From: a virus
Lineage: Duplodnaviria > Caudoviricetes
Length of the DNA: 64,000 nt
Direction: 5' to 3' (one strand)
Virus record (IMG/VR): IMGVR_UViG_3300006922_000005
Shown here: piece after piece, positions 21,699 through 59,433 of the stretch
Numbering within the stretch: the first letter of the stretch is position 1
Layout of the letters: each line of letters starts with the position of its first letter
The notes under the pieces: model-generated
What the model saw: the letters and a program-made list of their open reading frames with translations, nothing else
Told to the model about the DNA's origin: nothing
The model's database searches: none
Program-made: the position numbers and the translations under genes

Positions 21699-21788
21699 TG
21701 GCGGAAGGACTGGGATTCGAACCCAGGGAAGAGTTACCCCTTCGTCGGTTTAGTAAACCGGTGCTTTAAGCCGCTCAGCCATCCTTCC
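21699..21788 (-). tRNA. tRNA-Ser (anticodon ACT)
   Basis: GGAAGGA/TCCTTCC acceptor, long variable arm, GTTCGAATC T-loop, G73, encoded CCA; anticodon loop TTACTAA. Confidence 0.9.
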
Positions 21789-21886
21789 ACAAGTCTAACT
21801 TATGGTGATCATCCACGGCTCTCCGTAGATTAAAACATGTATACTATTAACAACGAGTGCAACTCCTAACATTTCTAAGTATCCCA

Positions 21887-22123
21887 TTACCTTTTTTCTT
21901 TCCTTATATTAACTTCTTGCTTGTGTACTACAAACTTTTCTATTTGAGACGGTTGTTTCACTAACCATCCGCCTTCATTAACAACAAAGACATCCCCAGG
22001 TTTGTATAACCAGTGGTCTTTAGGCTTACCTTCTTTACTAAACCCCATTACTTCTCCGGGCCAGTCTCCTGCAATTCTAAAGTTTTTACCAAATTGTTCT
22101 ACAGTGTAATCAAGCCACATCAT
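21887..22123 (-). CDS. Hypothetical protein
   Basis: ATGA-coupled small ORF. Confidence 0.55.
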   Translation of the reverse strand: MMWLDYTVEQFGKNFRIAGDWPGEVMGFSKEGKPKDHWLYKPGDVFVVNEGGWLVKQPSQIEKFVVHKQEVNIRKEKR

Positions 22124-22308
22124 AGATCAATCTCGTTTATTTGTATACAAATTGCTTGGGTTGACAGATTAAAGTTTCCATTTCCTTTACCTACTTGTTC
22201 ACTTAACATATCCCTCATACGAAAACATTCGTCCATAGTTCCTGGTAAGTCAACAACTGTACTAAAGGCCAATCCTGCTTCTATCCATATATAAACTAGA
22301 TACCACAT
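22120..22308 (-). CDS. Hypothetical protein
   Basis: TAATG-coupled small ORF. Confidence 0.5.
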   Translation of the reverse strand: MWYLVYIWIEAGLAFSTVVDLPGTMDECFRMRDMLSEQVGKGNGNFNLSTQAICIQINEIDL

Positions 22309-22469
22309 TAAACAGTTTCCTTGCTTGAGTGTATCAAACCGTAAACTTCGATTAAGTTACTGATTTGTGTAGCAAGGTGTGGCCATTTTTCTGTAAGTGT
22401 TTCTGCAAAACTATTACGTTCTTCAATTGACATTCTTGCGAATTGTTCAACTAGTGTATTAGTATCCAT
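22308..22469 (-). CDS. Small hypothetical protein (53 aa), not in ORF track
   Basis: AAGGAG SD and sigma70 promoter upstream. Confidence 0.6.
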   Translation of the reverse strand: MDTNTLVEQFARMSIEERNSFAETLTEKWPHLATQISNLIEVYGLIHSSKETV

Positions 22470-22495
22470 TTGTTTACTCCTTATTGTGTAAGTTT

Positions 22496-22524
22496 AATAT
22501 ACTACAAAAAGTAATGTTTGTCAA
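22496..22524 (-). promoter_or_regulatory. Sigma70-type early promoter
   Basis: TTGACA-17-TATATT. Confidence 0.7.
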
Positions 22525-22528
22525 CCTA

Positions 22529-22810
22529 TTATAGATATTCAACTTGTCCTGTAACTGTGTACATCTTTTTAAGAATTGATTCCACATCACTTTCAGTCAA
22601 AAAACCCTTCACAGTATCACCTTCTTCAGTGATGCCTGGCATTTCTACTTGTCCGTCACCTTTGAAGACAGCAATCTCATATAAGCCTTGGCGTCCGCCA
22701 TAACTTACTTCATTCTGTATAATTGACAGATCATATCCACCAAAGCGTACTTTGGCTTGTATGCCTTTAGGAATTAATGTTTCATTAAATGTTATATCAT
22801 TAAAAGTCAT
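22529..22810 (-). CDS. Hypothetical phage protein
   Basis: YDLSII...SYGG..GLYEIAV pattern; overlaps upstream gene. Confidence 0.6.
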   Translation of the reverse strand: MTFNDITFNETLIPKGIQAKVRFGGYDLSIIQNEVSYGGRQGLYEIAVFKGDGQVEMPGITEEGDTVKGFLTESDVESILKKMYTVTGQVEYL

Positions 22811-23225
22811 TATCCTCTTCTCCTTCGTCTAGATCTTCTCTTAATTGTTTTAGTTGTTCGGTAGTCATATTATTAACTTCACCGATACTTTTTTGTAATT
22901 TTACTGCATCTGGATGATCTGCATACACACCACCTTTTTCAAAATCACGTTCGTCTAGGATAGGACCTTTAGAGTCACTATCACGCATCATCTGAGTAAA
23001 TTCTTCAAGTAAGCGATCTTTAATAAAAGTTTCTAAATTCATACTATTCTTTTTATGACGATCACTTTCTATTTCTATATCTAAATCACTGACAATAGGT
23101 GTATGTGCATCGCACCACATCATTGGTAATCCGTCTTCACCATAATAAACTTCTACAATTTCATACCAAAACAAATCCGGAGAATCTTTTTGGTAACGGC
23201 GCATTATTCTAAAGTTCCAAGTCAT
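22800..23225 (-). CDS. Hypothetical phage protein
   Basis: MTWNFRIM...YEIVEVYY N-terminus; coupled ORF. Confidence 0.6.
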   Translation of the reverse strand: MTWNFRIMRRYQKDSPDLFWYEIVEVYYGEDGLPMMWCDAHTPIVSDLDIEIESDRHKKNSMNLETFIKDRLLEEFTQMMRDSDSKGPILDERDFEKGGVYADHPDAVKLQKSIGEVNNMTTEQLKQLREDLDEGEEDNDF

Positions 23226-23374
23226 TTTGTTATCTCTCTAATTTTTAATTTATAATCGTACATCGAGTTGTGTCCATTAAATTTAATAAGACAGTCTGTT
23301 ATGGTATAGTTTTTCCATCGTACTGTTTGTCCTGATGGGTATGTAACTTCGTATGTTCTTACTACGGTATCCAT
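23222..23374 (-). CDS. Small hypothetical protein
   Basis: Start refined to lie downstream of tRNA-Leu; AGGA SD. Confidence 0.45.
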   Translation of the reverse strand: MDTVVRTYEVTYPSGQTVRWKNYTITDCLIKFNGHNSMYDYKLKIREITK

Positions 23375-23398
23375 TAAGTTTGTCCTATATAGTTGCGT

Positions 23399-23485
23399 TG
23401 GTACGGACGGCGAGACTCGAACTCGCACGAACATGTGTTCTCAAGATTTTAAGTCTTGTGTGTCTACCTATTCCACCACGTCCGC
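23399..23485 (-). tRNA. tRNA-Leu (TAA)
   Basis: Cloverleaf, anticodon loop CTTAAAA, variable arm, A73, CCA. Confidence 0.93.
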
Positions 23486-23547
23486 GGCTAACGCCTTTAA
23501 TTAATTTGATTGTATTGCTCCCTAGGGAAATGTGTTACTGTTTATAT

Positions 23548-23576
23548 ACTATACTATCGAATGATATAGATGTCAA
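23548..23576 (-). promoter_or_regulatory. Sigma70-type promoter for tRNA-Leu
   Basis: TTGACA-17-TATAGT. Confidence 0.75.
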
Positions 23577-24256
23577 CTATTTTGTATATAAAAATATGTT
23601 TTTTTGAGCAATTTTTTTATGACAGGATGTCTTGTGTTAAAGTTCCATGCAGTTAGATATCCTACTAGGTTAGGTGAAAGTAAGTTTCCTAGTTTGTCAC
23701 GAAGTTCAGTTGTATTGTTTGCTTTTCGTAACATATCTAATGCTTGTTCTTTATCTGCGTGTCTTAGCAGTTCGCTTGAGATATTCTTTGCAAAGGCTTC
23801 TATCTCATCTTGATTACCTAAATACTTTTGTTCTCTATCAGTTGCACGAAAACCTTTTTGTGTCGCAAAGTCTCTTTTACGATATTGTTTACTGTGAATC
23901 ATTTCATGTTCAAGTGCATCAATAACTCTAAACTTAACTTCTTCTATAGTATCTGCTGAAAACTTTATACCATCTTTGTTTTTTGGATTAAACAACAAAT
24001 CAATTCTATAAGGATCTAATTCATCTTCATCGTCCCATGGATCATATGTTGCATTAAGATTCATGTCATTAACATCAACGTTGTTAGTGTAGTCTACTGA
24101 TACTTTTTCAACTCCTAAACTTGCTATTAGGCTTTTTAACTTTCTAGCAATATACTTAGGTTGAAGATTATCTCTAGTAAGATACGTTAGAAAAGGTTCT
24201 AGTATCTTTGCTAGTTCTGATCTATCTTGAGGTTGTTGTACTTCATATAAACGCAT
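23573..24256 (-). CDS. Putative zincin-type metallopeptidase
   Basis: HEMIH (HExxH) plus downstream EIEAFA; TAAATA-N5-ATG. Confidence 0.55.
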   Translation of the reverse strand: MRLYEVQQPQDRSELAKILEPFLTYLTRDNLQPKYIARKLKSLIASLGVEKVSVDYTNNVDVNDMNLNATYDPWDDEDELDPYRIDLLFNPKNKDGIKFSADTIEEVKFRVIDALEHEMIHSKQYRKRDFATQKGFRATDREQKYLGNQDEIEAFAKNISSELLRHADKEQALDMLRKANNTTELRDKLGNLLSPNLVGYLTAWNFNTRHPVIKKLLKKTYFYIQNS

Positions 24257-24264
24257 AATGCTAT

Positions 24265-24753
24265 TTAATCTAATTTGTATTCAAAATTTTGAGATACATC
24301 ATTTATATGTACTTGTTTTGCACCATTCTTAATATGAAAATGTGTTGCCATAGTTGTTAATGGTGATAGTGTTACTAGTCTACTAAACTTATGTGCCTTT
24401 GCCCATTCGCCTAGTTTTTTAATAATTTCTTTACCTGCACCTTTTTTTCTAGACCATACAGTGTATGCAACAACAATTTCTCCTCGTTGCCCGTCTTGGT
24501 TAGCAACCTGTGACATGTAATCCATTTCTCTAACTGTATGCGGTACTTCGGGACATAATGCAGTACAAACGATTGCTTCTATTTCTTCATTATACTTTAG
24601 ACCAAATATTTTTCGGCCGTGCATTATTCTAAAACCTAGTGTAAGTTCCGGTCTAACAGGATCCTCACTTACATCAATGTCGTCTAGTTCAACTAGTTCA
24701 GAACCTTTTACCCACTTAAAAAAGTCTTCGACACTGTCTTTAATTTTTAACAT
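24265..24753 (-). CDS. GNAT-fold-like protein
   Basis: YTVWSRKKGAGKEII resembles acetyl-CoA motif A; FHIKNGA near C-terminus. Confidence 0.5.
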   Translation of the reverse strand: MLKIKDSVEDFFKWVKGSELVELDDIDVSEDPVRPELTLGFRIMHGRKIFGLKYNEEIEAIVCTALCPEVPHTVREMDYMSQVANQDGQRGEIVVAYTVWSRKKGAGKEIIKKLGEWAKAHKFSRLVTLSPLTTMATHFHIKNGAKQVHINDVSQNFEYKLD

Positions 24754-24946
24754 TAATAGTATCTTCCTTCTTTGTTATTGACCATGCACCATGATCAAGT
24801 TCTTCCCATAATAGAGTGTCACCATCATCCCAACCCATTTGATTAAGACTTTCAGGTGGCAGATCTAAAAAGAGTTCTTTTGTTTTTCCGTTTTCTCTTA
24901 CTTGAACGATCCAACTGTTTGGACCTGTTTTCTTAGGATAGGACAT
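24740..24946 (-). CDS. AbrB/MazE/SpoVT-like DNA-binding protein
   Basis: LFLDLPPESLNQMGWDDGDTLLW pattern. Confidence 0.6.
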   Translation of the reverse strand: MSYPKKTGPNSWIVQVRENGKTKELFLDLPPESLNQMGWDDGDTLLWEELDHGAWSITKKEDTINVKN

Positions 24947-24956
24947 CCTGATCTCC

Positions 24957-25523
24957 CTATAATATTTCGTCTGCTATTCCCATGTCAACCATTTGTTTAG
25001 CAGTGTAGTATTGGTCCGAAGGATTTTTAATAAACTTTGTACGAACCTCTTGCATTGACATGCCTGTTGCTTCTTTCAATATATTTAAGCATCTAATTTC
25101 ACAGTTTTGATTTTCTTTCATCTGTGCTCTCATGTCATGCATTTTGGAATTCATTTCATCACTGTGTTGATGATTCATGCTACCTGCATTTTTACCAATA
25201 TATCGTTCACCTTCTTTACCACTTGCAAAAATTAAAAAACCTGCACTCATAACAGCACCAATACCAACAGTAGATATATTATGGTAACTGTATTTCATTA
25301 CATCAATAAGTGCAAAGGCTTCGTATAAATCTCCACCATATGTATTAATGTATAGTTCTAAAGTGCGTTTGGGTTTTTTCTGTAAGTTTGCCGATAATAT
25401 CCATTTAATACAATCGCCAACATTATCTGTAGTAATTTCTCCGTGTAGATAATATACGTCATTATCCAGAAGACTTTTGTCAATTGTTTCACTAAATGTT
25501 AAATTATCATATTTAGAAGGCAT
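24957..25523 (-). CDS. clpP2: Second, divergent ClpP-like protease subunit
   Basis: INTYGGD, VMSAG (Ser), MNHQ (His), DQYYTA...GIADEI. Confidence 0.85.
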   Translation of the reverse strand: MPSKYDNLTFSETIDKSLLDNDVYYLHGEITTDNVGDCIKWILSANLQKKPKRTLELYINTYGGDLYEAFALIDVMKYSYHNISTVGIGAVMSAGFLIFASGKEGERYIGKNAGSMNHQHSDEMNSKMHDMRAQMKENQNCEIRCLNILKEATGMSMQEVRTKFIKNPSDQYYTAKQMVDMGIADEIL

Positions 25524-25529
25524 AATAGT

Positions 25530-25558
25530 AATATACGTATATTTAGTTTAAAAGTCAA
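25530..25558 (-). promoter_or_regulatory. Sigma70-type promoter for clpP2
   Basis: TTGACT-17-TATATT. Confidence 0.7.
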
Positions 25559-25572
25559 CATCTTTATTGTCC

Positions 25573-25691
25573 AAGTACGGCCCCCATCCCGCCTACTCAG
25601 TGATCTGGCTCATTATGAACACGGAGTACCTACCAAACTACGCTCACGGATCCCCAGATCTTTCCTTATGTGTAGCATCATATTGTGCTAC
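25573..25691 (-). ncRNA. Candidate structured RNA 3' of tRNA-Arg(TCT)
   Basis: GC-rich island with stems GTAGCA/TGCTAC, GATCTGG/CCAGATC, GAGTAGGC/GCC-G-TACTT. Confidence 0.4.
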
Positions 25692-25696
25692 GGTAT

Positions 25697-25773
25697 TGGC
25701 CTGCCCGGCAGGATTCGAACCTGCAACCTACTGCTTAGAAGGCAGTTGATCTATCCAGTTGATCTACGGGCAG
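25697..25773 (-). tRNA. tRNA-Arg (TCT)
   Basis: CTGCCCG/CGGGCAG acceptor, anticodon loop CTTCTAA, CCA. Confidence 0.94.
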
Positions 25774-25778
25774 TAACT

Positions 25779-26039
25779 TCAATTATACTCCCTATAGTTC
25801 TTGATAGACCATTTTTCAACAACAGGTAAACCATTCTCATCTTCGTCTACTGCGACATAGGCCACAGTCTTTTTAACTGTACCATAACGGTATCCTTGAC
25901 CAACTACATCGCCTACCCAGATCTTGTGTGGGTAGTCGCACCATGTATCGCGATCATTCAGTGAAAATTCAAAATGGTTGCCCACTTCTTTTTCAACAAA
26001 TGCTCCAATTGGGTCTTTAGTGTGAGTCCAGTAAGCCAT
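25779..26039 (-). CDS. Hypothetical protein
   Basis: AGGAGG SD; promoter upstream. Confidence 0.65.
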   Translation of the reverse strand: MAYWTHTKDPIGAFVEKEVGNHFEFSLNDRDTWCDYPHKIWVGDVVGQGYRYGTVKKTVAYVAVDEDENGLPVVEKWSIKNYREYN

Positions 26040-26075
26040 ATAGGCCTCCTATTGCTGTTTTCTAACTATGTACTT

Positions 26076-26104
26076 ATAATAACACCACCCTATATAGAAG
26101 TCAA
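26076..26104 (-). promoter_or_regulatory. Sigma70-type promoter
   Basis: TTGACT-17-TATTAT. Confidence 0.65.
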
Positions 26105-26178
26105 CCACTAATTGCAATTATGTGCTAATATTTTTCCAATCCGGCGATAAATATCTATATCGAAGCGAGGATGTGTAC

Positions 26179-26457
26179 ATGGATTTTTTAGCGTTTGTTG
26201 GCGAAGTTGGTTTCCCTATTGCAGGAGCAATAGCCGCGGGATCATTTGTCTTCTTAACGTTAAAATTTATCCTAGCATCAGTAACAGGGTCAGTACAAGG
26301 TCTTAAAGGTATTATTGGTGCATTAGATAATCGTGTTCAAACTATGAACAACGACCTTGTTAAAATAGATGCATTATTAAGTTATGTATTAAGTATTAGA
26401 CCAAACGTTGATCGTATTGCGGCCAACGAAGGAAAAGAGGACGCTCGGCGTGATTAA
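26179..26457 (+). CDS. Small membrane protein, YvrJ-like (GFPI motif), paralogue 1
   Basis: GAGG SD before 26179; GFPIAG TM helix followed by coiled coil. Confidence 0.6.
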   Translation: MDFLAFVGEVGFPIAGAIAAGSFVFLTLKFILASVTGSVQGLKGIIGALDNRVQTMNNDLVKIDALLSYVLSIRPNVDRIAANEGKEDARRD

Positions 26458-26463
26458 AACAAG

Positions 26464-26793
26464 ATGACAACAGAATTAGCAAATGCAATTAAAGACTTTG
26501 GGTTTCCGATTGTTGCCGCTATGGGATTAGGTTATTTTGTTTATTATGTATGGAAGTGGGTAACCACTGAAATTAAACCTGTGCTAGGTGAAGCACAATC
26601 TACACTTATAAAATTAGTTGATCGTATTAGAATGTTAGATAATGATATGATTAGACTGAACACAAAACTATCAATGGTGTTAGAATACAAAGACGAGATA
26701 GAACAAGCCTCCGGGCAAAAACTAGACATAGACGATATTCTAACTAGGAACAAAAGTTTTTCTGAGGGGTTTGATAGTACGGGGAAAAAATAA
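26464..26793 (+). CDS. Small membrane protein, YvrJ-like (GFPI motif), paralogue 2
   Basis: GFPIVAAMG TM helix plus DRIRMLDNDMIRL coiled coil. Confidence 0.6.
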   Translation: MTTELANAIKDFGFPIVAAMGLGYFVYYVWKWVTTEIKPVLGEAQSTLIKLVDRIRMLDNDMIRLNTKLSMVLEYKDEIEQASGQKLDIDDILTRNKSFSEGFDSTGKK

Positions 26794-26879
26794 ATGTCAG
26801 AAGAACAAAAAAACTATTTTGCTTTGACTAAGTACATACTGATAGGATTAATATTCAGTATTGCAGTTGGAGTTGTAGT

Positions 26880-27251
26880 TTGTTATATGTGTTACTAACA
26901 TTTTTATTTTTACTTTTTGCTAAACATGCAATTTGTGATTTAGCAATTCAACGACTACTTCATTCAAATAAAGAAAAGTATCTTAATCAACAAGCACATA
27001 TTCACTACTTACATCACGGACTAGGTAGTTTGTTTGCAGGACTTGTTATTGATATTAAGTTCGCTTTTGTAATTTTTGTTTTAGACTATCTAATTCACTG
27101 GCACGTTGATTATTGTAAGACTCTTGTTCGTAAGTATTATGATCTGAAGGAAAAAGATTTGCAGTTTTGGGTATTGCAGTCTGCGGATCAGGTTCTACAC
27201 TATTTGACGTATATCCTATTTGCTGTTTTAGTTCTGCAATTCTACGCTTAA
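26880..27251 (+). CDS. DUF3307-like membrane protein
   Basis: KH..CD, H..H, HWHVD, DQVLH pattern. Confidence 0.7.
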   Translation: MLYVLLTFLFLLFAKHAICDLAIQRLLHSNKEKYLNQQAHIHYLHHGLGSLFAGLVIDIKFAFVIFVLDYLIHWHVDYCKTLVRKYYDLKEKDLQFWVLQSADQVLHYLTYILFAVLVLQFYA

Positions 27252-27274
27252 TTTGCATTACACGATATTCTATA

Positions 27275-29326
27275 TCACTTACCTGTTGCAATAAAAACTC
27301 CATTCCAATCTTTTGGTAAGTCTTGTGTTTGCTGGAATTCACAACGTTCGATCCACATCTTATAATATCCTTCCATCTTACCATCAAAGTGTCGCATTAA
27401 ATTATTGCAAAGTTTAATTGCTTCTTTAAAGTTTTGATTTCTATATTCTTTATGCATACGAATATGCATCTCTTGACTTTTTGTTATTGCATGTGTAACT
27501 TCAATATTTAATACTGTGTATATTGCGAGGCCAACACTCTTACCTTTAACTTGTAGATCATCTACTTTTAAGTAAAAGAAGTCGTCTTTTGTTGCTTCAT
27601 ATGTCGCTTCTCCAACAAGTAATAGACATCCGTATTCTTTACACTTGCTTTCAATACGAGCGGCTGTACTGACTGAGTCTCCAAGGACATCGTAACTGTG
27701 TCTTGCTGTACTGCCCATCTCGCCCAAATAACCAAGACCAGTATTAATACCAGCCCCCATCCCAACGGGTGGCCTGCCTTCGCTAGTAATTTTTTCATTA
27801 AACTTCTCCACTGCGGTTAACATTTTTAATCCTGTTTGGATTGCACTCTTAGGATGATGCGGATCGTCTAGTGGTGCACCGTGAATATGCATACTTGCAT
27901 CACCAATATATTTAATAACCATACCATCTGCATCTAGTATAGGTTGCGTAATTGCATCCATATAACTATTCATAATTTTAGTTAGGCCTTTTACATCATC
28001 TCCAAAACTTTCACCTAATGGTGTAAATCCTCTTAGATCGGAGAAGCAAATTGAAACTTCTTTTTTCATACCGTCTTTGATTAGTGCTGGATTCTCTTGT
28101 AGCATACGTACTACTGTTGGAGATGCGTATCCTGCGAACTGTTTCTTAATTGCTTGTTTCTCAAAAAATTCAACTACAAATCGATTAAACGTTGCATGAA
28201 ACCCTGTAATAACAGTTACAAGTACGAACCAACTCCAGTCCCATAGCATTAAATGCTTCGTAAACGCAATATAAGCACCGTACACTGGCGTTATAGAAGT
28301 AATGAGTATCATTGCCCCAACGGCCCAGTAAGGAGCACGTACGGCTACTAATATTAACAATAAGCCACCTACGATTGTTGCTATCCATTCTACAAATGTA
28401 GCATAATCGAAACGTACAATAGTGTCTCCATTTATAATAGTTTGGAGGCTAGTAGCAATAGGCATGTGTCCAAATTGTTCTCCACGTGGAGTGGCTATCA
28501 CATTGGCTAACCCTTCTGCTGTAATTCCTACAATTACTGTTTTACCTGCTAACATACTATAGTCATCTTGTGAAGCACTAACAGTTTCAAATTCTTTATT
28601 ATAACGTAACCATATTCTACCATATTGGTCAGTTTTAATTGTTGCATATTTTGGAACACGCATTGCAGTAATTCCGCCTTGTTGTGTTTTAACTTGATAA
28701 CTTGGATCACCAACAGCAACACGAATAGTTTCCATAGCAACACTAGGATATGTTTCATCACCAACTCTCATTATAAGAGGTACACGCCTTACGACACCAT
28801 CTATTTCTGGTACTGTTGATATTACTCCAACACCGTCTGCGTTTAATCCTAACAATTCAATTGGTCCTAACATACCTGGCCATTCAAACAACCAAGGCAT
28901 AGGATCGCCTATTTTAGCAACACCTCTTGGTACTGCATTTTTATTAACACCTTGTGTTGTTCCTGTTTGAGCAATAATTACACCATTACCTGCTAATGCT
29001 TCGGCAAGTTCCATATCTCCGCCTAGTCTATCTTCTTCAGAAAATAGTATAGGCATTACAATAATGCCAGCACCTGACTCACGTAACTTCCAAATTATAT
29101 CTGCAAGTGTTTTTCTGTTCCACGGCCACTGTCCGTATTTCTCAATTGACTTTTCGTCTATTTCTAAAATAGCAACATCTTGTGATACAGTAGGAATATC
29201 ATACTGTTGTATAATATCAAAACTTTTTAATCGTAGTGTTTCTTTAACATAAGGATCAGAAAATCCTATAAAAGAAAGTACTGCTAAAGTGACTAAAGCA
29301 GTTGCCCAATGTGTAATATATTTCAT
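27275..29326 (-). CDS. CHASE2-domain class III adenylate cyclase
   Basis: WPWNR...A.II, D.DGVVRR CHASE2 motifs; three TM helices; FSDLRGFT, KYIGD, YDVLGDSVSTAARIE. Confidence 0.92.
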   Translation of the reverse strand: MKYITHWATALVTLAVLSFIGFSDPYVKETLRLKSFDIIQQYDIPTVSQDVAILEIDEKSIEKYGQWPWNRKTLADIIWKLRESGAGIIVMPILFSEEDRLGGDMELAEALAGNGVIIAQTGTTQGVNKNAVPRGVAKIGDPMPWLFEWPGMLGPIELLGLNADGVGVISTVPEIDGVVRRVPLIMRVGDETYPSVAMETIRVAVGDPSYQVKTQQGGITAMRVPKYATIKTDQYGRIWLRYNKEFETVSASQDDYSMLAGKTVIVGITAEGLANVIATPRGEQFGHMPIATSLQTIINGDTIVRFDYATFVEWIATIVGGLLLILVAVRAPYWAVGAMILITSITPVYGAYIAFTKHLMLWDWSWFVLVTVITGFHATFNRFVVEFFEKQAIKKQFAGYASPTVVRMLQENPALIKDGMKKEVSICFSDLRGFTPLGESFGDDVKGLTKIMNSYMDAITQPILDADGMVIKYIGDASMHIHGAPLDDPHHPKSAIQTGLKMLTAVEKFNEKITSEGRPPVGMGAGINTGLGYLGEMGSTARHSYDVLGDSVSTAARIESKCKEYGCLLLVGEATYEATKDDFFYLKVDDLQVKGKSVGLAIYTVLNIEVTHAITKSQEMHIRMHKEYRNQNFKEAIKLCNNLMRHFDGKMEGYYKMWIERCEFQQTQDLPKDWNGVFIATGK

Positions 29327-29362
29327 ATTTGTATTTATTTGTGTTTAAGTTGGTGCTAAAGT

Positions 29363-29782
29363 TTATGATATATTGCACCAATACTGTTCTGCACCAGGCT
29401 GTAAAGACTCACAACCTCGTAGAAGTAATTCTAACATCACAGGTAGGTCTTGGGCAATACCAGTTATCATAGCAAGAAAAATAAACAGGAAAAATAGTAT
29501 AATAGGACTTAATAAAATTAACCACCAATAGGTTCTAAGTATTCCGTGTCCGTGTTCAAGTCTGTATTCTCTTTTATGAGCAAACCATCGTACTACTATT
29601 TTGATTATTGATTTAATTCCTCCAACAAACCAATCGCCTATAAAGTGTCTAATGATTCTAACAACAATAAGTATTGGACTTGAAACTACTTCCCATATCA
29701 AAAGTAATGCATCAACACAAAGATCAACAACGTGATCAATAGTCCACCATTCTTTAAAACGTTGCCATCTACTCTTGTTCAT
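29363..29782 (-). CDS. Hypothetical membrane protein
   Basis: Hydrophobic segments; late-promoter motif upstream. Confidence 0.55.
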   Translation of the reverse strand: MNKSRWQRFKEWWTIDHVVDLCVDALLLIWEVVSSPILIVVRIIRHFIGDWFVGGIKSIIKIVVRWFAHKREYRLEHGHGILRTYWWLILLSPIILFFLFIFLAMITGIAQDLPVMLELLLRGCESLQPGAEQYWCNIS

Positions 29783-29792
29783 AACGTATTTA

Positions 29793-31238
29793 TTATTGCT
29801 GAACTACAGTGGTTGTTCCACAACCATTTGCGTTAACACAGGTTTGACTTATTGAGTATGTTTGATTAGTTGAACCTTGTTGTGTAAGGTCAAGTGTTGC
29901 ACTAAACCCTGACATAGATACTGAAGTGTTGTGCTGTCCACTTCCGTCTTGTGTTATGTCAACTGTTTGATCACTGCCAACAGCAATTTCTGCATAGTGT
30001 GAACCTGCACCTTGTTGATATAAGTCTATATCATTGTCATCACCTTGTACACTTAGAAATGCTTTTTTATCTCCGTCATTGAGTTGACTTGCTAAAACAT
30101 TATTGTTGTCACCATCTAAATCTAATGCAAAGAAGTGTCCATTAGTTCCTATACCATTGTTGTGATTTTGTGTAATGCTTGTTGTATTAGTGTCACCATT
30201 AATACTAAACTCAAGTCTATTATCGTCTGCACCTGACGTACTACCTTGATCAGCAGTTGTTGTATTAGAGTCGCCTGTAATATTAAACAACATAACATTA
30301 TTGTTGCCTTTTTGTTTGAGTGTAGTAGTGTTATTGTTTCCTACAATCTCTGCATGTATCAAACTGTTTGTTGTACTACCACCGCCTGCAATAAGATTGT
30401 CATTGCCATCTTGTACAATAGTTAAATCGTTGTTGTCTCCTACTTGCTCAATGTATACGCCGTTGCCACTGTGTGTTACTGCTCTTGATGTTGTTATCTG
30501 TGTAGTCTGTGCGTTGCTTATGCTTGATGTATATGTGGTTGTTGTTGCAACTAATCCTTCTTCTTGCAAGGCTCGATACAACAAATCATTCATGTTAGAC
30601 GCATATTGATGAGTTGAAAGAAACTGACCATAACCAAATGTTACATAAACTGAACCACCATTTGAACCATAATCCCATTTGTGCATAATAGGAATATTAT
30701 TATTACTAGATGAGTTAGCGGCTACAGTTTCACCACCAGTTACATTGTACATATATTTGTCTGAACCTGGTAAAGTATTTTCACTAGTTGTACTACTTGC
30801 ATAGTCACCTTTTCTTACTGAATAGTAACAAGTATTGCATCCGCCACCTTGAGTAAAACTACCTACGCCCATCTTAGTTTCAATCAGTGCTTCTATACTG
30901 TTATTTCTGTTGGTTGCTCCGTTGGATCCTACTATAAGTAATTTGCCGCCGCCACTTACATAAGTGTCATACACTGACTTACAGGTACTACCACAGTTTG
31001 AAGTGCCTGTCATATCAATAACTAAATCCTGGCCTGATACATCACTTGAACTAGTTGTGCCACTTGTGCTACCTGAAACAGTAAAGCCTGCATCTTCAAG
31101 TTCGCTTTTTAGATGTGTATATTGGTCTGAAGTAACACCATTTCTATAATATATAAAGGCATCATTTGCAGATGCTTGTATAGGCAATACTAATAATAAA
31201 AATAATATACTACTGTACTTGAATAATGTCAATTTCAT
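29793..31238 (-). CDS. Secreted protein with C-terminal curlin-like repeats
   Basis: Signal peptide; repeated (I/V).Q.G..N units in C-terminal half; distinct N-terminal globular domain. Confidence 0.75.
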   Translation of the reverse strand: MKLTLFKYSSILFLLLVLPIQASANDAFIYYRNGVTSDQYTHLKSELEDAGFTVSGSTSGTTSSSDVSGQDLVIDMTGTSNCGSTCKSVYDTYVSGGGKLLIVGSNGATNRNNSIEALIETKMGVGSFTQGGGCNTCYYSVRKGDYASSTTSENTLPGSDKYMYNVTGGETVAANSSSNNNIPIMHKWDYGSNGGSVYVTFGYGQFLSTHQYASNMNDLLYRALQEEGLVATTTTYTSSISNAQTTQITTSRAVTHSGNGVYIEQVGDNNDLTIVQDGNDNLIAGGGSTTNSLIHAEIVGNNNTTTLKQKGNNNVMLFNITGDSNTTTADQGSTSGADDNRLEFSINGDTNTTSITQNHNNGIGTNGHFFALDLDGDNNNVLASQLNDGDKKAFLSVQGDDNDIDLYQQGAGSHYAEIAVGSDQTVDITQDGSGQHNTSVSMSGFSATLDLTQQGSTNQTYSISQTCVNANGCGTTTVVQQ

Positions 31239-32325
31239 TTTGTCCATCTCCAAGTTGATAATCTCTGTATTCGAAATCATTTTGTTGCATATTAATATTA
31301 TAACCATACTGTTGATCTAAACGTAATTCATAAAAGTTTCCTAATCCATCATCACGTCTTAATACCCAGTCAGGGTTTTGATCATACAGTTCTATTCCTG
31401 TTTCAGGATCTTTACCTAACTGTATACCTTTTTGTCTCGAGTCTAATGCTCCACGCATTAATCTTGCTAACTGTTGATTAATTAAATCTAATACGTTTGC
31501 AAGAAAGTTTTGTTCTAAAAAATCTATGTCTAAGTCAGTCATCCAAATATCTTTAGTTTGTGAACCAAGATAGTCTGAATTAAGTTCGTCAAATTCTAAA
31601 AAGTCAAATCCTAAAAAGTCTGCAAGTTTCTCTGCTCTTATTCTTTCTTCTTCGTCTGATATTTCTACAGGCTTACGAATGATTAATAAGTTTCCAATTA
31701 AACTTTCGTCAATGTCTAACATTAAAGGTTTGAGAGGATTATTCTTTGATGTTTCAACTACTGTTGCCTGAAATGCTTGATTAAGAATTACAGTACCAAC
31801 ATCAGAACTTACTTCAATTTCTCCTACAACACAGATTGCTGTTTTTCCATTACCGGAGCAACTAGGTAATAATATAATTGTTGAACTTCCTGTTTCATCT
31901 ACAGTCATTGAAAAGTCTGTACCACGTACACCAATTACTGCCGTTGGAGTTTTAATCTTTACATTCTGTCTAGAGTTCTTAGCAATTTGTCCAGATGCGT
32001 ACCTAACTGTTCCAAATGACGCTTTTAGCGAAAGACTTCCTGTTGAAGTGTTAGGATCGTATACGAATTCATCAATAACCAGTTTACTGTTTTGTGTAAC
32101 ATCTACTCTTGTTTCATCTAAAAACTGAATTGCTGTTTTACCTTTTTGTGTTCTAATAGTGTCGTAACTTTCAACTCCAGAACCTTCTTCACTAAGGATT
32201 TTGTCGCCAGCCTTTCTTTCGATGGTCGTGGCTCCTACTTGCTCGATTACTTCGCCAATGCTGGCAAACGCACTCGAGGTTATAGCCGTGAATAATAGTA
32301 TAGTTGTTACGAACAGTCTATGCAC
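31210..32325 (-). CDS. Secreted FecR-domain protein
   Basis: Signal peptide; D.IRT..G...I.FLD.T.V.V..NS.LVID, IKTPTAVIGVRGTDF. Confidence 0.85.
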   Translation of the reverse strand: MHRLFVTTILLFTAITSSAFASIGEVIEQVGATTIERKAGDKILSEEGSGVESYDTIRTQKGKTAIQFLDETRVDVTQNSKLVIDEFVYDPNTSTGSLSLKASFGTVRYASGQIAKNSRQNVKIKTPTAVIGVRGTDFSMTVDETGSSTIILLPSCSGNGKTAICVVGEIEVSSDVGTVILNQAFQATVVETSKNNPLKPLMLDIDESLIGNLLIIRKPVEISDEEERIRAEKLADFLGFDFLEFDELNSDYLGSQTKDIWMTDLDIDFLEQNFLANVLDLINQQLARLMRGALDSRQKGIQLGKDPETGIELYDQNPDWVLRRDDGLGNFYELRLDQQYGYNINMQQNDFEYRDYQLGDGQNEIDIIQVQ

Positions 32326-32329
32326 AGGA

Positions 32330-33034
32330 TTAGTCGTCCTGCGTTATGTCGATTTCAGCACCGTCACCATTAGTGGTTAAACTGATTATATTATCATACA
32401 ATCCACTTTGTGTAATGTTGATAAGTCCGCCATCTCCTGTATGACTATGTGTTAAAGTGTGTCCGTTAACATCGCCGTCATCATTAATATCAATAACTGC
32501 TGTATTACCTGCACTACCTTGACTATTTGAAATGTCGATATCTGCTATTGCACTTTTACCGTCTACTGTTAATGTAACTGTTTCTGATGCACCACTTGTG
32601 ATATCTATTGTACCAGTGAAGTTTTCTGCGTCTGCCGCTTCACCTACACTCACATTAATATCTGCACTTGATCCTGTTATGTCAATACTTAAACTTACAG
32701 TATCACAGTTTCCTGCTCCTGCACTATCACAGAGTAATGCTACATCATTACTGTTACCAGTAAGATCAATATTACCTGTGTAAGTTACACCTTTAACTAT
32801 TGCTGATACAACGTTAGCACCACCAATTTGGTCAATGTTAAACGTCATAGCGTTACCAGTAAGAGTCACTCCAGTTTGTGCTGTACCAATTACGTTGTTT
32901 TGTCCGTCTTGTGATATATCTAAATCTAAATTGTTACCCGACTGTTGAATGTATATGTCATTCGCAAATCCAGACCCAACTGAGAAAAAGAATAATACAA
33001 AACCCATCATTATATATTTTACTTTATTTTGCAT
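32330..33034 (-). CDS. Curlin-like secreted repeat protein (CsgA/B-like)
   Basis: Signal peptide; NDIYIQQSG.N.DLDISQDG.NN repeats. Confidence 0.7.
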   Translation of the reverse strand: MQNKVKYIMMGFVLFFFSVGSGFANDIYIQQSGNNLDLDISQDGQNNVIGTAQTGVTLTGNAMTFNIDQIGGANVVSAIVKGVTYTGNIDLTGNSNDVALLCDSAGAGNCDTVSLSIDITGSSADINVSVGEAADAENFTGTIDITSGASETVTLTVDGKSAIADIDISNSQGSAGNTAVIDINDDGDVNGHTLTHSHTGDGGLINITQSGLYDNIISLTTNGDGAEIDITQDD

Positions 33035-33051
33035 TCTCGCTCCTTGTTCTT

Positions 33052-33879
33052 TTAATGAAGATGTCGTCCTTCTGAAGTTATTTCTTTTCCTTTATACTTC
33101 CAAAGTTCGCCTTCTTCGCCTTTCTTTACTATTTCTCCTACACATGCCTCTATTGCGGCTCTAACTGCGTAGTTGGTAGGTTCATTGACCGCGGAACCCG
33201 TTTCTAATTCTAACGCTTTCGTTCCAAGATCTAAAAACCTAAATACATCTGCTCCAGACTTGTGACTTGCTATTGTTTTCTCACAGGCTACAGTAAGTAA
33301 TACTTCACCTGTTTGAACACTTACAATTCGCATTGCCACTGTTACTTGATCAGTTCGGTAACTTGTGTTAGCGCCGATACCAAAATATCTTGCTCCAACT
33401 CCGCCACTAGTTGTATTTGAATCATAGCCTACTACGCCACCTTCTAATAACAACCCTGCAAATAACATAGGTTTCAACTTAACTGCCTCTTTGCCTTCAA
33501 ATACTTCCCTTGTTGATCTTATCAATTGCCTTTCTTTAACCAAGTTATCTAAGCCTACACGTTCTACAACGGTAAACCAAGAACCCCCTCCTACCTTCTG
33601 AAGTGCGTTAATAACCCAAACTTCAGACCCTTGCGTTACCGCACTAGACAACTGACTAAAATTGTCACTTGGTTTTCGTTGTCCAGTTTTGTCCTGAAAA
33701 CTATAAACCGCTATAGTAATTTTAGGACCATCAAGTTTTGGCATTGCAACTAAAGTATCCTGTATGGGAGAGCGTGCCTCGGTTGGACTGCTCCAGTTTA
33801 CTTTTGCTGTTTGTGTAGCACACCCGTTTAAAAACGTCATTGCCAAAAACCCAATTATTAAAAATCTTATGCCTCTCAT
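33052..33879 (-). CDS. csgG: Curli secretion channel lipoprotein
   Basis: Lipobox LNGC; AVYSFQDKTGQRKP, FTVVERVGLDNLVKERQLIR, GGVVGYDSN. Confidence 0.93.
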   Translation of the reverse strand: MRGIRFLIIGFLAMTFLNGCATQTAKVNWSSPTEARSPIQDTLVAMPKLDGPKITIAVYSFQDKTGQRKPSDNFSQLSSAVTQGSEVWVINALQKVGGGSWFTVVERVGLDNLVKERQLIRSTREVFEGKEAVKLKPMLFAGLLLEGGVVGYDSNTTSGGVGARYFGIGANTSYRTDQVTVAMRIVSVQTGEVLLTVACEKTIASHKSGADVFRFLDLGTKALELETGSAVNEPTNYAVRAAIEACVGEIVKKGEEGELWKYKGKEITSEGRHLH

Positions 33880-33882
33880 ATT

Positions 33883-34332
33883 TTAGAATCCAAATCCGCT
33901 CAATGGAACAACAATCTCTGTAGTGCTACCGTCTTCTTCTGTAATTAGAAGTGTAATAGTATCAGACGTTGTATCCTTTACCCAGTAAATCGTAGCACCT
34001 TCAATAGTTGCAGTTCCGGAACTGTCTCCGTCATCAGTAAACATATTGTCAACTAATTGTTTAGACAGTTGAGCATAGATTCGAGATTCTATGTTGTTTA
34101 AAAACTTTGCTAAGGTAGTGCTATCTGCTTCACGTTTGGCTTTAGCCGCATCGGCCGCCGCTTTTTCTTCTGCTTCTTTCTTTCGAGTAAACTGTAACTG
34201 TTCAATTGACAGTACATGATTACTATATCCTGATCCATTAAAAGATGGATTTTTAAAAGTGAATACTTGTTCGCTCGCTCCAGCCGTACCAATAAGACAG
34301 ACGAACAATGTAGTCGTGACTATGTTTTTCAT
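33883..34332 (-). CDS. csgF: Curli assembly protein
   Basis: Signal peptide then F.FKNPSFNG.G; position upstream of csgG. Confidence 0.85.
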   Translation of the reverse strand: MKNIVTTTLFVCLIGTAGASEQVFTFKNPSFNGSGYSNHVLSIEQLQFTRKKEAEEKAAADAAKAKREADSTTLAKFLNNIESRIYAQLSKQLVDNMFTDDGDSSGTATIEGATIYWVKDTTSDTITLLITEEDGSTTEIVVPLSGFGF

Positions 34333-34444
34333 TTTCTGCTCTCCCATTGATATTTACCGCGATCTCTATTAAATACGCATAGTAAAGTAATTACAGTATT
34401 ATTTACTGTAAAATTTTTTACGATTAACCAGGAGTATTTAACCA

Positions 34445-34702
34445 ATGACAGCACAATCAGAGTCTGAACAGCAACTACAATCTAGAAAAGAGCAAGATGC
34501 TTTATATGAAATTTTTAGTGTAATATGGCCCCATGATCCTGATCCTGTAAAATGTGATCTCAACGACGAATTAAGCAGTCTGGAAAAGGTATTAGTTCAA
34601 GATGCAATGCGAAGTGTTAATAATAACAAAACCAAAGCGGCTAGTTTACTCAATATTAGCAGAGAAAATTTAATTTATAAACTTAAGAAGATTGCAGAAT
34701 AG
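34445..34702 (+). CDS. Stand-alone Fis-type HTH protein
   Basis: LEKVLVQDAMRSVNNNKTKAASLLNISRENLIYKLKK; AGGAG SD. Confidence 0.8.
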   Translation: MTAQSESEQQLQSRKEQDALYEIFSVIWPHDPDPVKCDLNDELSSLEKVLVQDAMRSVNNNKTKAASLLNISRENLIYKLKKIAE

Positions 34703-35132
34703 CATTTGTAGCATCTACTAATTCTTGTGTAGAAAACTTAAACCTATCTTTTTCAGGTAATAGTGCTGGTGTTAGAGCATGTTCTCGATCAAGATATTTG
34801 TATTCCATTTTAACGGGGTTGTAGTATTCTTCAACCCACTCAAACACTGTACGTGGATCAAATGCTCCACAAGTATAAACATCTAATTGTATTAATGCAG
34901 GATCTGTTTCATCCCAACTATGTAATACAATGTGACTGGTTTCTATAATTGCGGCAACTGTTAATCCTCGGTTGCCTTCCATTTCAACATACTTGGCAAA
35001 AGGACCCATAAGCACTTTCATGCCTATGCGATCAATCAGAGTTTGTATTTGATTACTTGCTGTGTTTTCGTTTGTAGGCGGATTAAGTACTTCCGCTCTT
35101 ATTATCACATGCTTATGCACGAGTGGTTTCAC
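34683..35132 (-). CDS. speD: S-adenosylmethionine decarboxylase proenzyme
   Basis: IIETSHIVLHSW.E, LDVYTCG; GTG start with TAAGTA-N5. Confidence 0.85.
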   Translation of the reverse strand: MKPLVHKHVIIRAEVLNPPTNENTASNQIQTLIDRIGMKVLMGPFAKYVEMEGNRGLTVAAIIETSHIVLHSWDETDPALIQLDVYTCGAFDPRTVFEWVEEYYNPVKMEYKYLDREHALTPALLPEKDRFKFSTQELVDATNAILQSS

Positions 35133-35154
35133 TCGACTACTTATATTTGTTAGT

Positions 35155-35229
35155 TGGTAGTCCCTAGGAGAATCGAACTCCTCTTTGCGAGATGAAAACC
35201 CGCTGTCCTAACCGATAGACGAAGGGACC
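35155..35229 (-). tRNA. tRNA-Glu (TTC)
   Basis: Cloverleaf, anticodon loop TTTTCAT, CCA. Confidence 0.92.
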
Positions 35230-35249
35230 TTAATTTTTTAATTATTAAC

Positions 35250-35278
35250 AGTATAGCACCAAAGCACTATACTGTCAA
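35250..35278 (-). promoter_or_regulatory. Sigma70-type promoter for tRNA-Glu
   Basis: TTGACA-17-TATACT. Confidence 0.75.
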
Positions 35279-35799
35279 CCTTTTCTAACCTCATCAATGT
35301 GTATAGGTGTAAAATTAATTTGTTCTACACAAACACACTTGTAAGGACCATCTGGACTAGGATTGCTATGTATATGTCCATGAGCGTTTATCCCAGGTCC
35401 GTTATCACCCCATCTATGTCTTTCTTCAAGAGTACTTGCATGTAATGGAGTATGAGTACAAATAACACCAGGTAACTCAATCCACAACTGTATATCCTTA
35501 AAGAACGGAGCAACATGTTTTACATTGTCATGGTTTCCAAGAACAAGTCTTTTCTTACCAGGTAACTTTGCAAAGTTTGCTTCTAACCATTCTACTTTGT
35601 TTTCACCAAACAATACATCACCTAAGTGTATAACTGTGTCCTGAGGCTTAACAGTATTTGTCCAGTTATCTAACATTGTTTGGTTCATTTCATCTACGTT
35701 AGAAAAAGGTCTGATAGATCTACCACCTTGTGTAAATTCAAGGATCTTACTGTGATTGAAATGTGTATCACTTATTAACCATATATCTTTTGCCATCAT
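35275..35799 (-). CDS. Calcineurin-like metallophosphoesterase
   Basis: SDTH, HLGD, GNHD, H.P, HGHIH motifs. Confidence 0.88.
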   Translation of the reverse strand: MMAKDIWLISDTHFNHSKILEFTQGGRSIRPFSNVDEMNQTMLDNWTNTVKPQDTVIHLGDVLFGENKVEWLEANFAKLPGKKRLVLGNHDNVKHVAPFFKDIQLWIELPGVICTHTPLHASTLEERHRWGDNGPGINAHGHIHSNPSPDGPYKCVCVEQINFTPIHIDEVRKG

Positions 35800-35822
35800 A
35801 TTCTCCTAACTAACTTATATAC

Positions 35823-35851
35823 ATTATAACATCGGTAATACCAGATGTCAA
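35823..35851 (-). promoter_or_regulatory. Consensus sigma70 promoter for the phosphoesterase
   Basis: TTGACA-17-TATAAT. Confidence 0.85.
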
Positions 35852-35859
35852 CCAAAAAT

Positions 35860-35933
35860 TGGAGTGGACGACAGGAATCGAACCTGTATACATGGATTTG
35901 CAATCCACTGCGTAACCATTCCGCCACGCCCAC
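35860..35933 (-). tRNA. tRNA-Cys (GCA)
   Basis: Anticodon loop TTGCAAA, U73, CCA. Confidence 0.94.
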
Positions 35934-35937
35934 AAAT

Positions 35938-36011
35938 TGGCATAGGTGGAGGGAATCGAACCCCCATTAACTGGTTTGGAATCAGTTGTGTTACCATTAC
36001 ACCACACCCAT
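35938..36011 (-). tRNA. tRNA-Trp (CCA)
   Basis: A1-U72, G73, anticodon loop TTCCAAA, CCA. Confidence 0.9.
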
Positions 36012-36048
36012 AAAAAAACCCCCGTAAGCATTATAACTCCGGGGGTCT
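36012..36048 (-). terminator. Intrinsic terminator (attenuator) abutting the 5' end of tRNA-Trp
   Basis: AGACCCCCG...CGGGGGT followed by a U-tract. Confidence 0.85.
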
Positions 36049-36071
36049 AAAATTCATTGCTGAACAACTGC

Positions 36072-36137
36072 CTACAAGACACTCCCGGGTGGTTCACAAC
36101 CACACCATTCATAATTATTTGTATACTTCGTATTCAT
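36072..36137 (-). CDS. Putative attenuator leader peptide MNTKYTNNYEWCGCEPPGSVL
   Basis: AAGGA SD, ATG 36137, TAG 36074-36072; lies between promoter and terminator; W/C codons match downstream tRNAs. Confidence 0.7.
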   Translation of the reverse strand: MNTKYTNNYEWCGCEPPGSVL

Positions 36138-36164
36138 TGTTCGCTTTCCTTATTAACTTTTTAC

Positions 36165-36193
36165 AGTATATTATCTTTTTGTCGTATTGTCAA
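36165..36193 (-). promoter_or_regulatory. Sigma70 promoter of leader-tRNA-Trp-tRNA-Cys unit
   Basis: TTGACA-17-TATACT. Confidence 0.8.
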
Positions 36194-36431
36194 CCACAAA
36201 TGCTTTAATTTTGTTAAAATTATTTGTAGTTTGTTCTTTACCTTCTTGCCAACTATTTTTTTGGTATTCTACTATATCTGCCCATTCGCTGATTACCCAG
36301 TTATTTATTTTTTCAACAATAACAGGTTTCTTCTTAGGTGTTAATGTTTCATCAGCACCTGCTGTTGTAACAAGAAGTACAAATAATATTGTTATACTTG
36401 CTACGATTGTTAATAGTGTCTTAGTTGTCAT
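36171..36431 (-). CDS. Exported/membrane-anchored hypothetical protein
   Basis: N-terminal hydrophobic signal; AAGGA SD. Confidence 0.6.
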   Translation of the reverse strand: MTTKTLLTIVASITILFVLLVTTAGADETLTPKKKPVIVEKINNWVISEWADIVEYQKNSWQEGKEQTTNNFNKIKAFVVDNTTKR

Positions 36432-36451
36432 ATATTCCTTTTGTTAGTTTT

Positions 36452-36528
36452 TGGCCTGCTCGGGAGGACTCGAACCTCCGACCTTTGGTTCCGCAAACCA
36501 ATGTTCTATCCGGCTGAACTACGAGCAG
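36452..36528 (-). tRNA. tRNA-Arg (anticodon GCG)
   Basis: CTGCTCG/CGAGCAG acceptor, TTGGT/ACCAA stem, loop TTGCGGA, CCA. Confidence 0.92.
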
Positions 36529-38861: not shown

Positions 38862-39569
38862 TTATACCTTTTTTGGAAATAGCATATCAGTACAAAAACG
38901 CTCTACATCTGCTTCATTAAGTCCTAATGACTTCATTACTTTAGGTGTATGTGGGTTTTGTTGCTGATTGTGACAGTACCAGTTTTGTCCTTCAAGTACT
39001 GTGTTGCGATCGCCCGTGTTATTATGATCACCAATTGATTCAAGGTATACTTTTAAATTATTTTGTGCTAGGTCAATAATAGTGTCTGCTTCGTCCATAT
39101 CACTTACATTACCTGCCGCTACCATAGAGCCTGAAAATATATTAGTTGCCCATTCTGGTAATTCACGTTTTTTGCTAGGAACATATTCACTTACAGTATC
39201 TTCAAACCATTCTACCATATTATGATCAGCACCTTGCCCATTAGGTCCACCTAGTGGACTATAGTCATGAAATGCACCTGTCATTTTGTTTTTACCTGCA
39301 ATAACATCAAATCCGTAAATAGGACCATTGTTATGTAACTGCGGAAAAATACAAACGTGCATCATCCATAAGCCTTTTGTAGTAGTAGCATCTACGACAT
39401 CAATGTGTGCTCTACGAATGTTATTGTTTTGCCACACACGATTAATCCAACCGTTGTCAGGTTGATTAAAATAGTCTAATCCATCTTCAGCATATTCTGT
39501 TCCATACTCATCGAACATATCAATAATGTTGAATTTGCAATCATTAAGTTTATTCCAAAGTTCACTCAC
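38862..39569 (-). CDS. pcyX: Ferredoxin-dependent bilin reductase (PcyA/PcyX-type)
   Basis: RRAHID, MMHVCIFP, GFDVIAG, AFHDYSP, QQQNPHT; Asp where cyanobacterial PcyA has Glu76; coupled to heme oxygenase. Confidence 0.8.
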   Translation of the reverse strand: MSELWNKLNDCKFNIIDMFDEYGTEYAEDGLDYFNQPDNGWINRVWQNNNIRRAHIDVVDATTTKGLWMMHVCIFPQLHNNGPIYGFDVIAGKNKMTGAFHDYSPLGGPNGQGADHNMVEWFEDTVSEYVPSKKRELPEWATNIFSGSMVAAGNVSDMDEADTIIDLAQNNLKVYLESIGDHNNTGDRNTVLEGQNWYCHNQQQNPHTPKVMKSLGLNEADVERFCTDMLFPKKV

Positions 39570-59028: not shown

Positions 59029-59154
59029 CTTTTAAATATACTGGTTTTATATGTTATGTCGCCTACGGCGTGGATAGAGTCCGTTCTATACTGTGTTCTT
59101 TTTGTTATAGTTAAAGGTGCTTTTGTATATACACTATTTATATTGCTCTCTATA

Positions 59155-59420: not shown

Positions 59421-59433
59421 CGTTACATATATA

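Follow-up and report, generated by a model that had tools for sequence, protein, structure and literature searches.

It has been asked since 2020 what abundant marine phages gain from 7 kb of curli genes, and a second question is which ligand the CHASE2 domain binds. The two questions meet at positions 27,275 to 34,332 of a 64,000-nucleotide stretch of DNA from a virus of the Caudoviricetes (IMG/VR record IMGVR_UViG_3300006922_000005; "the window" below means this whole stretch), where genes for the curli pore proteins CsgF and CsgG, two curlins and a FecR-domain protein stand beside one for a CHASE2-containing nucleotide cyclase. The comparison reported here makes both questions testable: by prediction the FecR protein is exported through CsgG while its head is held back, one exporter can take the place of another, and the module is present in two cultured phages. 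We put at about 0.5 the probability that the phage builds an anchored surface probe coupled to the CHASE2 receptor. A preliminary description of this DNA had placed seven open reading frames on one strand, from csgF to the cyclase gene, and all seven do lie in that order on the minus strand; it had omitted the two small genes that we call S1 and S2 (26179-26793, plus strand). The genes are as follows.

33883..34332, minus strand: CsgF, pore partner (Pfam PF10614, E 6e-17), with the N-terminal FxFxNPxFxG motif retained
33052..33879, minus strand: CsgG, outer-membrane pore lipoprotein (Pfam PF03783, E 5e-52), with an invariant lipobox Cys20
32330..33034, minus strand: curlin A, 234 amino acids (Pfam PF07012, E 8e-5), with signal peptide and curlin repeats
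31210..32325, minus strand: FecR-domain protein (Pfam, E 5e-11), with signal peptide
29793..31238, minus strand: curlin B (Pfam, E 8e-11), with signal peptide, N-domain of about 208 amino acids, curlin repeats and a C-terminal Cys pair (49/50)
30543..31166, minus strand: swappable head of curlin B, a GIFT/IFT52-like alpha-beta fold
29363..29782, minus strand: 139-amino-acid transmembrane (TM) protein, matching no family
27275..29326, minus strand: CHASE2-class III nucleotide cyclase receptor (Pfam, E 6e-42 and 6e-18)
26464..26793, plus strand: S2, small membrane/coiled-coil protein of 109 amino acids with a GFPI motif, core module member
26179..26457, plus strand: S1, small membrane/coiled-coil protein of 92 amino acids, S2 paralogue, core module member

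The FecR protein has a plug-like head and a curlin-type tail

The FecR protein begins with a signal peptide (a hydrophobic segment from residue 4 that ends AFA-S), which is followed by a FecR/plug-like domain (residues 23-217), an acidic low-confidence linker (about 225-275), a helix (274-297) and a C-terminal beta domain; the structure model has a predicted local distance difference test score (pLDDT) of 75. The linker is 44-53 residues long with 27% Asp/Glu, and is poorly ordered in the model. In model comparisons residues 52-217 match PupR/FecR signalling domains with Z 14-15.5, and residues 20-116 match the RIN region of the adhesin MpIBP (5IX9) with Z 8.1 (root-mean-square deviation 2.1, 74/76 residues). 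5IX9 is also the best sequence match of the head, though a weak one (E 0.076). RIN is a periplasmic plug, too large for passage through TolC, and it remains in the periplasm because it is unable to pass that channel (PMC5550230). At the other end of the protein is a terminal strand of the form phi-x-phi-x-Q, found in 45/46 FecR proteins (76/78 in a second set), in 40/45 curlin A and 45/50 curlin B proteins, and among the controls in 0/42 CsgG, 0/54 cyclase and 13/761 background sequences. From the curlin-type terminal strand, the plug-like head and the signal peptide together we infer that the FecR protein is a CsgG cargo whose head is retained.

This arrangement shares parts with two known systems and is identical to neither. 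With FecA-FecR-FecI cell-surface signalling it has the FecR periplasmic fold in common, but the window protein has no membrane anchor and no cytoplasmic anti-sigma part, and there is neither a cognate extracytoplasmic function (ECF) sigma factor nor a TonB receptor among the window's neighbouring genes. With the retained repeats-in-toxin (RTX) adhesins MpIBP and LapA (PMC5550230) it shares the N-terminal plug fold, with a linker and then a surface part, and a phage type I secretion variant described below shows the whole of that layout. In contrast to those adhesins, the window system is Sec-dependent and tied to CsgG, it has a complete FecR domain, larger than their plug, as its head, and a CHASE2 cyclase rather than LapD/LapG beside it. 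A type I exporter and a C-terminal RTX signal are absent from the window locus, and the exporter is present in the sister variant. When the CHASE2 domain (22-308) and the FecR protein (23-292) were modelled as a complex, the score was 0.00, which counts neither way.

Conservation of the module

The gene set at this locus is not new. The preliminary description had only csgF and csgG as previously reported in phages, but the whole set, FecR and cyclase included, is in print: the order HK(s)-CsgF-CsgG-CsgA/B-FecR-CsgA/B-AC (HK, histidine kinase; AC, adenylate cyclase) was described in Pelagibacter podo- and myoviruses (Wittmers et al. 2022, PMC9599517), and the cultured phages HTVC008M (gp011-019) and Melnitz (97-104) carry the same module in the same order, so we count it as a known gene set. 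The window has each of these features, namely csgF-csgG-curlin-FecR, the second curlin and the adenylate cyclase downstream, and short "HK" genes; its cyclase is 72.7% identical to that of Melnitz and its CsgG 63% to that of HTVC008M. According to the work on Melnitz, the module also occurs in OM43 phages. The window differs from the published modules in belonging to a T4-like jumbo phage of about 350 kb and in having the two small genes behind the cyclase on the opposite strand, and the main text of the 2022 paper does not mention CHASE2 or PA14. Literature searches on marine jumbo phage curli and on FecR in phage type I secretion turned up no paper.

The preliminary description made its proposal depend on conserved linkage, and the linkage is conserved in both directions. 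All of csgF, csgG, curlin A, FecR and curlin B are present in the 52 cyclase loci (52/52) that have 6 kb of upstream DNA, and S1/S2 in 51 of the same 52. Starting from csgG, FecR and a curlin are found at 71/71 loci and the cyclase at all 43 that have 7 kb downstream; starting from S1, 51/51 S1/S2 loci adjoin the module, always as a pair. The surveyed loci are related, were chosen by likeness and include duplicates, so that these counts show conservation and not independent events; a scan with the single protein CsgG returned only near relatives. The linkage even survives inversion: in L002-L004 and L266 the curli half has been turned round with respect to the cyclase without being parted from it. 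By comparison, no FecR and no cyclase gene lies within 10 kb of csgG in 69 ordinary bacterial loci. Several loci filed under bacterial metagenome-assembled genomes (MAGs), with 35-40% GC (L096-L102, L115, L123, L169, L259, L260), look like module-bearing phage DNA and were treated as phage contigs.

S1 and S2, the small proteins of 92-109 amino acids, were labelled histidine kinases in the 2022 paper (S2 is probably one of the published "HK" genes), a label that does not fit their size and lack of kinase domains: there is no HisKA or HATPase Pfam match in 29 members and no invariant His. Among named families YvrJ comes closest (score 0.89, which makes it a lead and no more; one Pfam match at E 0.07), and a profile comparison with the cyclase gave no match. 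Their homologues sit before csgF in HTVC008M and Melnitz. The 139-amino-acid TM gene is less constant, being present in 7/52 curli loci; we had taken it for a chance insertion, an idea that softened once a 43%-identical homologue turned up in many of the type I secretion variants, immediately ahead of the cyclase.

The exporter is exchanged while FecR and CHASE2 stay

A search outward from S1/S2 brought to light a second form of the phage module, built on type I secretion (L446:10533-19946; L469-L477, L484-L504) and present in L446 and about 20 viral loci. Its order is FecR-headed giant adhesin, TolC, ABC membrane part, HlyD, TM gene homologue, CHASE2 cyclase and S1/S2. The adhesin is 1200-1700 amino acids long and consists of a FecR head, an acidic spacer and cadherins; the ABC protein is the membrane half, with no Walker A motif in the loci, and the cyclase has the canonical Asn (see below). 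csgG was not found in the L446 record, which is 41% complete and does not thereby establish its absence. The L473 adhesin bears the same GIFT-like head as the window curlin B (E 1e-11), but it is the only one that matched; the L446 adhesin showed no significant profile similarity to this head (probability 0.3%). Thus the FecR head and the CHASE2 receptor are the constant parts, and the outer-membrane route varies.

FecR and CHASE2 had been called recurrent neighbours in bacteria, and this is borne out: they recur together with an outer-membrane translocon both in bacteria and in the phage type I variant. The nearest FecR kin in Alphaproteobacteria (136/401 genomes) head RTX proteins beside type I exporters, some of them near cyclases. 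About 22 of 121 SAR11 genomes have a CHASE2 receptor of their own, of SpoIIE type where scanned and mostly beside FecR and a Slam-like barrel; conversely, SAR11 FecR kin adjoin a Slam-like barrel and a CHASE2-SpoIIE receptor in 10/13 loci, plus two more. Such SAR11 islands are found in L210, L226 and L246-L258, and some of their FecR proteins have long Lys-rich tails. An outer-membrane component that signals to a CHASE2 adenylate cyclase has been shown for NsrA-CyaK (PMC7529298). The Sinorhizobium NsrA-CyaK/CyaD1/D2-Clr system is alike in that feature; it differs in that no Clr/CRP was found here and in that a curli pore replaces the beta-barrel receptor.

A chromosomal csgF-csgG-curlin-FecR-CHASE2 cyclase module is present in one marine Hyphomonadaceae lineage (MAGs of Henriciella sp. 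and Hyphomonas TMED17; L118:6466-12489, L178-L180), alone among the 151 Hyphomonadaceae genomes searched. This copy has 52% GC, lies amid transport and metabolic genes and is without S1/S2. In a quick tree its CsgG groups on the phage side; as the Henriciella row has a long branch there, and as all the trees were quick ones, we claim no donor direction. In the same kind of tree the window CsgG lies within the viral clade (inside a 37-row starred set, support 99), apart from the 69 bacterial rows. Distant CsgG-like genes (28% identity) are also present in unrelated large phages (Brevundimonas jumbo phages, H17-H21).

A proposed tethered probe coupled to the cyclase

CsgG and CsgF form an outer-membrane pore in E. 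coli, and that is the family function. The locus has the features of such type VIII secretion, with a CsgG pore lipoprotein, CsgF and curlin-repeat subunits predicted to be Sec-exported, as in E. coli and alphaproteobacterial curli (CsgABFG); it differs from these in that no csgE, csgC or csgD was seen and that curlin B can bear a folded head. We suggest that the pore would be formed late in infection, judging from the TAAATA motifs described below, and that the two curlins would be exported through it and stack into a short beta-solenoid stalk with, in some strains, a swappable binding head at its tip. The FecR protein would thread CsgG, so that its curlin-type C-terminal strand joins the stalk outside, the acidic linker occupies the pore and the folded head is left behind in the periplasm as a plug, the part that RIN plays for MpIBP at TolC. 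The retained head could then be the ligand of CHASE2, and cyclase activity would depend on whether the probe is assembled, bound, pulled or lost; the company that these genes keep suggests this step. The reader of the cyclic nucleotide would not be of CRP type, and S1/S2 might be accessory or output subunits, a guess made because they are the only other constant partners. The full chain would be a trans-envelope sensor of contact or load: a tether with a FecR head, passing through the curli pore or a type I channel, joins an adhesive stalk outside and gates the cyclase inside, and a non-CRP receptor reads the nucleotide and steers infection. Taken as a whole we regard it as doubtful; if it is true, the orphan CHASE2 domain gains a protein ligand, and the curli pore gains a new class of retained cargo. 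As for the trans-envelope sensor of the preliminary description, the conserved linkage and the recurrence of FecR, CHASE2 and a translocon fit a relay, but nothing that we found speaks for the sensing of superinfecting phage.

The cyclase has the residues expected of class III enzymes: two metal-binding Asp (D430 and D476), Arg (R557) and the phosphate Lys (K594) are invariant (54/54), as is K472, which with D546 (50/54) makes up the ATP-specifying pair. Because this pair is kept, the product is probably cAMP, perhaps made at a low rate. The gene is under purifying selection (dN, nonsynonymous divergence, 0.009-0.011; dS, synonymous divergence, 0.17-0.20; dN/dS about 0.05).

Several observations weigh against the coupled probe. 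The transition-state catalytic Asn, regarded as essential in mammalian cyclases, is replaced by Ser553 in 50/54 proteins. The combination of Asp546 and Ser553 marks a derived cyclase clade (support 100, quick tree); the HTVC008M cyclase is canonical and that of Melnitz has the Ser variant. Since active natural cyclases without this Asn exist (Ma1120, Rv1900c), Ser553 should lower and not exclude activity, and with the low dN/dS these exceptions make cyclase activity likely. More serious is that the output step, a reader of cAMP, is missing from the proposed chain. The cyclic nucleoside monophosphate (cNMP)-binding domain PF00027 was not found in Melnitz, HTVC008M or the complete 357-kb relative of the window phage, and it occurs in only 6/121 Pelagibacteraceae genomes. 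The cAMP output of the preliminary description is thus not supported, and the lack of a recognisable reader in phage or SAR11 suggests an unrecognised receptor or another product. The sampled SAR11 genomes are almost devoid of cNMP-binding domains and class III cyclases: the 121 genomes yield three cyclase matches, two of them from the phage module itself and the third a reading frame full of stops. The host of the window phage may differ from SAR11.

Linkage, moreover, need not mean contact, because the cyclase appears to have a start of its own and withstands both insertions and inversion; unrelated small genes are found between it and curlin B, which like the inversions is consistent with such a start. 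Modules without the cyclase have been reported (Wittmers 2022, PMC9599517), curlin B is missing from some loci (L259, L260), most curlin B proteins are headless (a head is present in about 14/50), and Melnitz infections proceed with no clumping or fibres seen. Finally, for every member the proposed mechanism rests on comparison.

Alternative explanations

The rival that survives best makes the fibre an adhesin or shield first. Variable-headed curli would aggregate cells ("sibling capture") or mask receptors, FecR would do no more than anchor the fibre, and the cyclase would be a co-inherited regulator acting inside-out or independently; we consider this possible, with the odds against it. It is already a published hypothesis, the type I variant is laid out like a Lap/MpIBP adhesin, and the PA14 and GIFT-like heads are typical adhesin tips that are exchanged among near-identical strains. 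The window curlin B head folds like the IFT52/GIFT domain (Foldseek E 8e-5, TM-score 0.58-0.61, model pLDDT 63), a fold that secreted proteins, one FecR fusion among them, also carry, and PA14 takes its place in L030, L037 and HTVC008M gp018. In strains with 99%-identical cyclases, identity between the heads is down to 63% (dN 0.29, dS about 1.0), a variation that looks like allele exchange rather than demonstrated positive selection. The adhesin explanation does not say why two unrelated exporters should both keep company with a receptor cyclase and S1/S2, and the absence of visible clumping with Melnitz counts against it as well.

The preliminary description itself favoured a relay in which a superinfecting phage or cell contact raises cAMP and delays lysis as in T4, with S1/S2 possibly holin-like. 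Late-type TAAATA motifs fit it, and S1/S2 are short membrane proteins whose lead to YvrJ could point the same way. However, no link to a lysis gene was seen in any locus and no T or RI homologue was seen, a cAMP reader is lacking, and the bacterial chromosomal copy persists without S1/S2. T4 lysis inhibition, moreover, works through RI and holin T without a second messenger, and we judge this explanation improbable.

We give very little credence to the published proposal of iron or nutrient uptake, with CsgG as an open channel and FecR as an iron-citrate regulator (Wittmers 2022, PMC9599517): the FecR fold does match anti-sigma domains, but this protein combines a cleavable signal peptide and a curlin-like C-terminus with the lack of an anti-sigma part, and no ECF sigma factor or TonB-dependent receptor was seen in the module. 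Hardly credible is the idea that CsgG/F serves instead as a lysis pore of pinholin or secretin type, for which a structural argument was published for Melnitz (Buchholz 2022), as that argument assumed that curlins are absent, whereas both are present in Melnitz and a curlin is present at 71/71 csgG loci, and the CsgG lipobox is retained.

Promoter motifs and control region

The following features may bear on expression of the module; the TAAATA sites before csgF and the TM gene were also omitted from the preliminary description.

34445..34702, plus strand: Fis-like helix-turn-helix (HTH) gene (Pfam HTH_8, E 2e-11), divergent from csgF; accessory, in 18/52 loci
34391..34411, no strand: 8-5-8 inverted repeat, candidate operator between the HTH gene and the csgF promoter
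34351..34356, minus strand: TAAATA late-type promoter motif before csgF, found in most loci where csgF is the first operon gene
29787..29792, minus strand: TAAATA-N4-ATG motif before the TM gene, from a motif survey of the window
29332..29337, minus strand: TAAATA-N5-ATG motif before the cyclase, its own, probably leaderless, start

The cyclase motif, which the preliminary description called a late start, is real. The distance from TAAATA to ATG is exactly 5 nucleotides in 11/17 of the window's TAAATA sites that are linked to open reading frames, and the spacing is not due to chance, since 14 sites lie 3-7 nucleotides from an ATG as opposed to 0-4 for unrelated permutations. The motif before the cyclase recurs in about 30 of some 50 relatives; in the window it also precedes two tail-fibre genes, and it does not precede the ribonucleotide reductase (RNR) or ClpX genes. 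On this distribution a late promoter is plausible. The second ATG of csgF (34332) is preceded by a GGGAG ribosome site. Palindromes are present between the HTH gene and the csgF promoter in most HTH-bearing loci; a GTGTWAA...TTWACAC palindrome is common to other loci at the csgF promoter, and that of the window differs from it.

The phage and other genes in the window

Eight tRNA/tmRNA genes, tail fibres and RNR indicate that the window comes from a marine T4-like jumbo phage. The record closest to it is 66 kb long and 19% complete, and a relative with the same module is complete at 357,559 bp and has a Gp23-type capsid gene. A Gp23 search matched 4/5 larger records and gave no match in five fragments, for which there was no positive control. 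Marine metagenomes contain DNA near-identical to the window. Contigs from three metatranscriptome sets match parts of the module at 90-99% identity; we do not take them as expression because contigs show neither strand nor level and DNA carry-over is possible.

A metallophosphoesterase-like gene (35275-35799), a possible cyclic-nucleotide hydrolase, lies 1 kb from csgF and is not a constant neighbour of the module. The window also encodes two ClpP-like proteins and a ClpX-like ATPase (19101-19694, 24957-25523 and 48639-49892), and a permuted tmRNA and seven tRNAs (59115-59458 and 21699-36528), including a tRNA-Ser call with an unusual ACT anticodon. At 38862-40101, with a TAAATA-N5 start, are genes resembling heme oxygenase and ferredoxin-dependent bilin reductase, and a Cu/Zn superoxide dismutase-like gene lies at 11096-11650.

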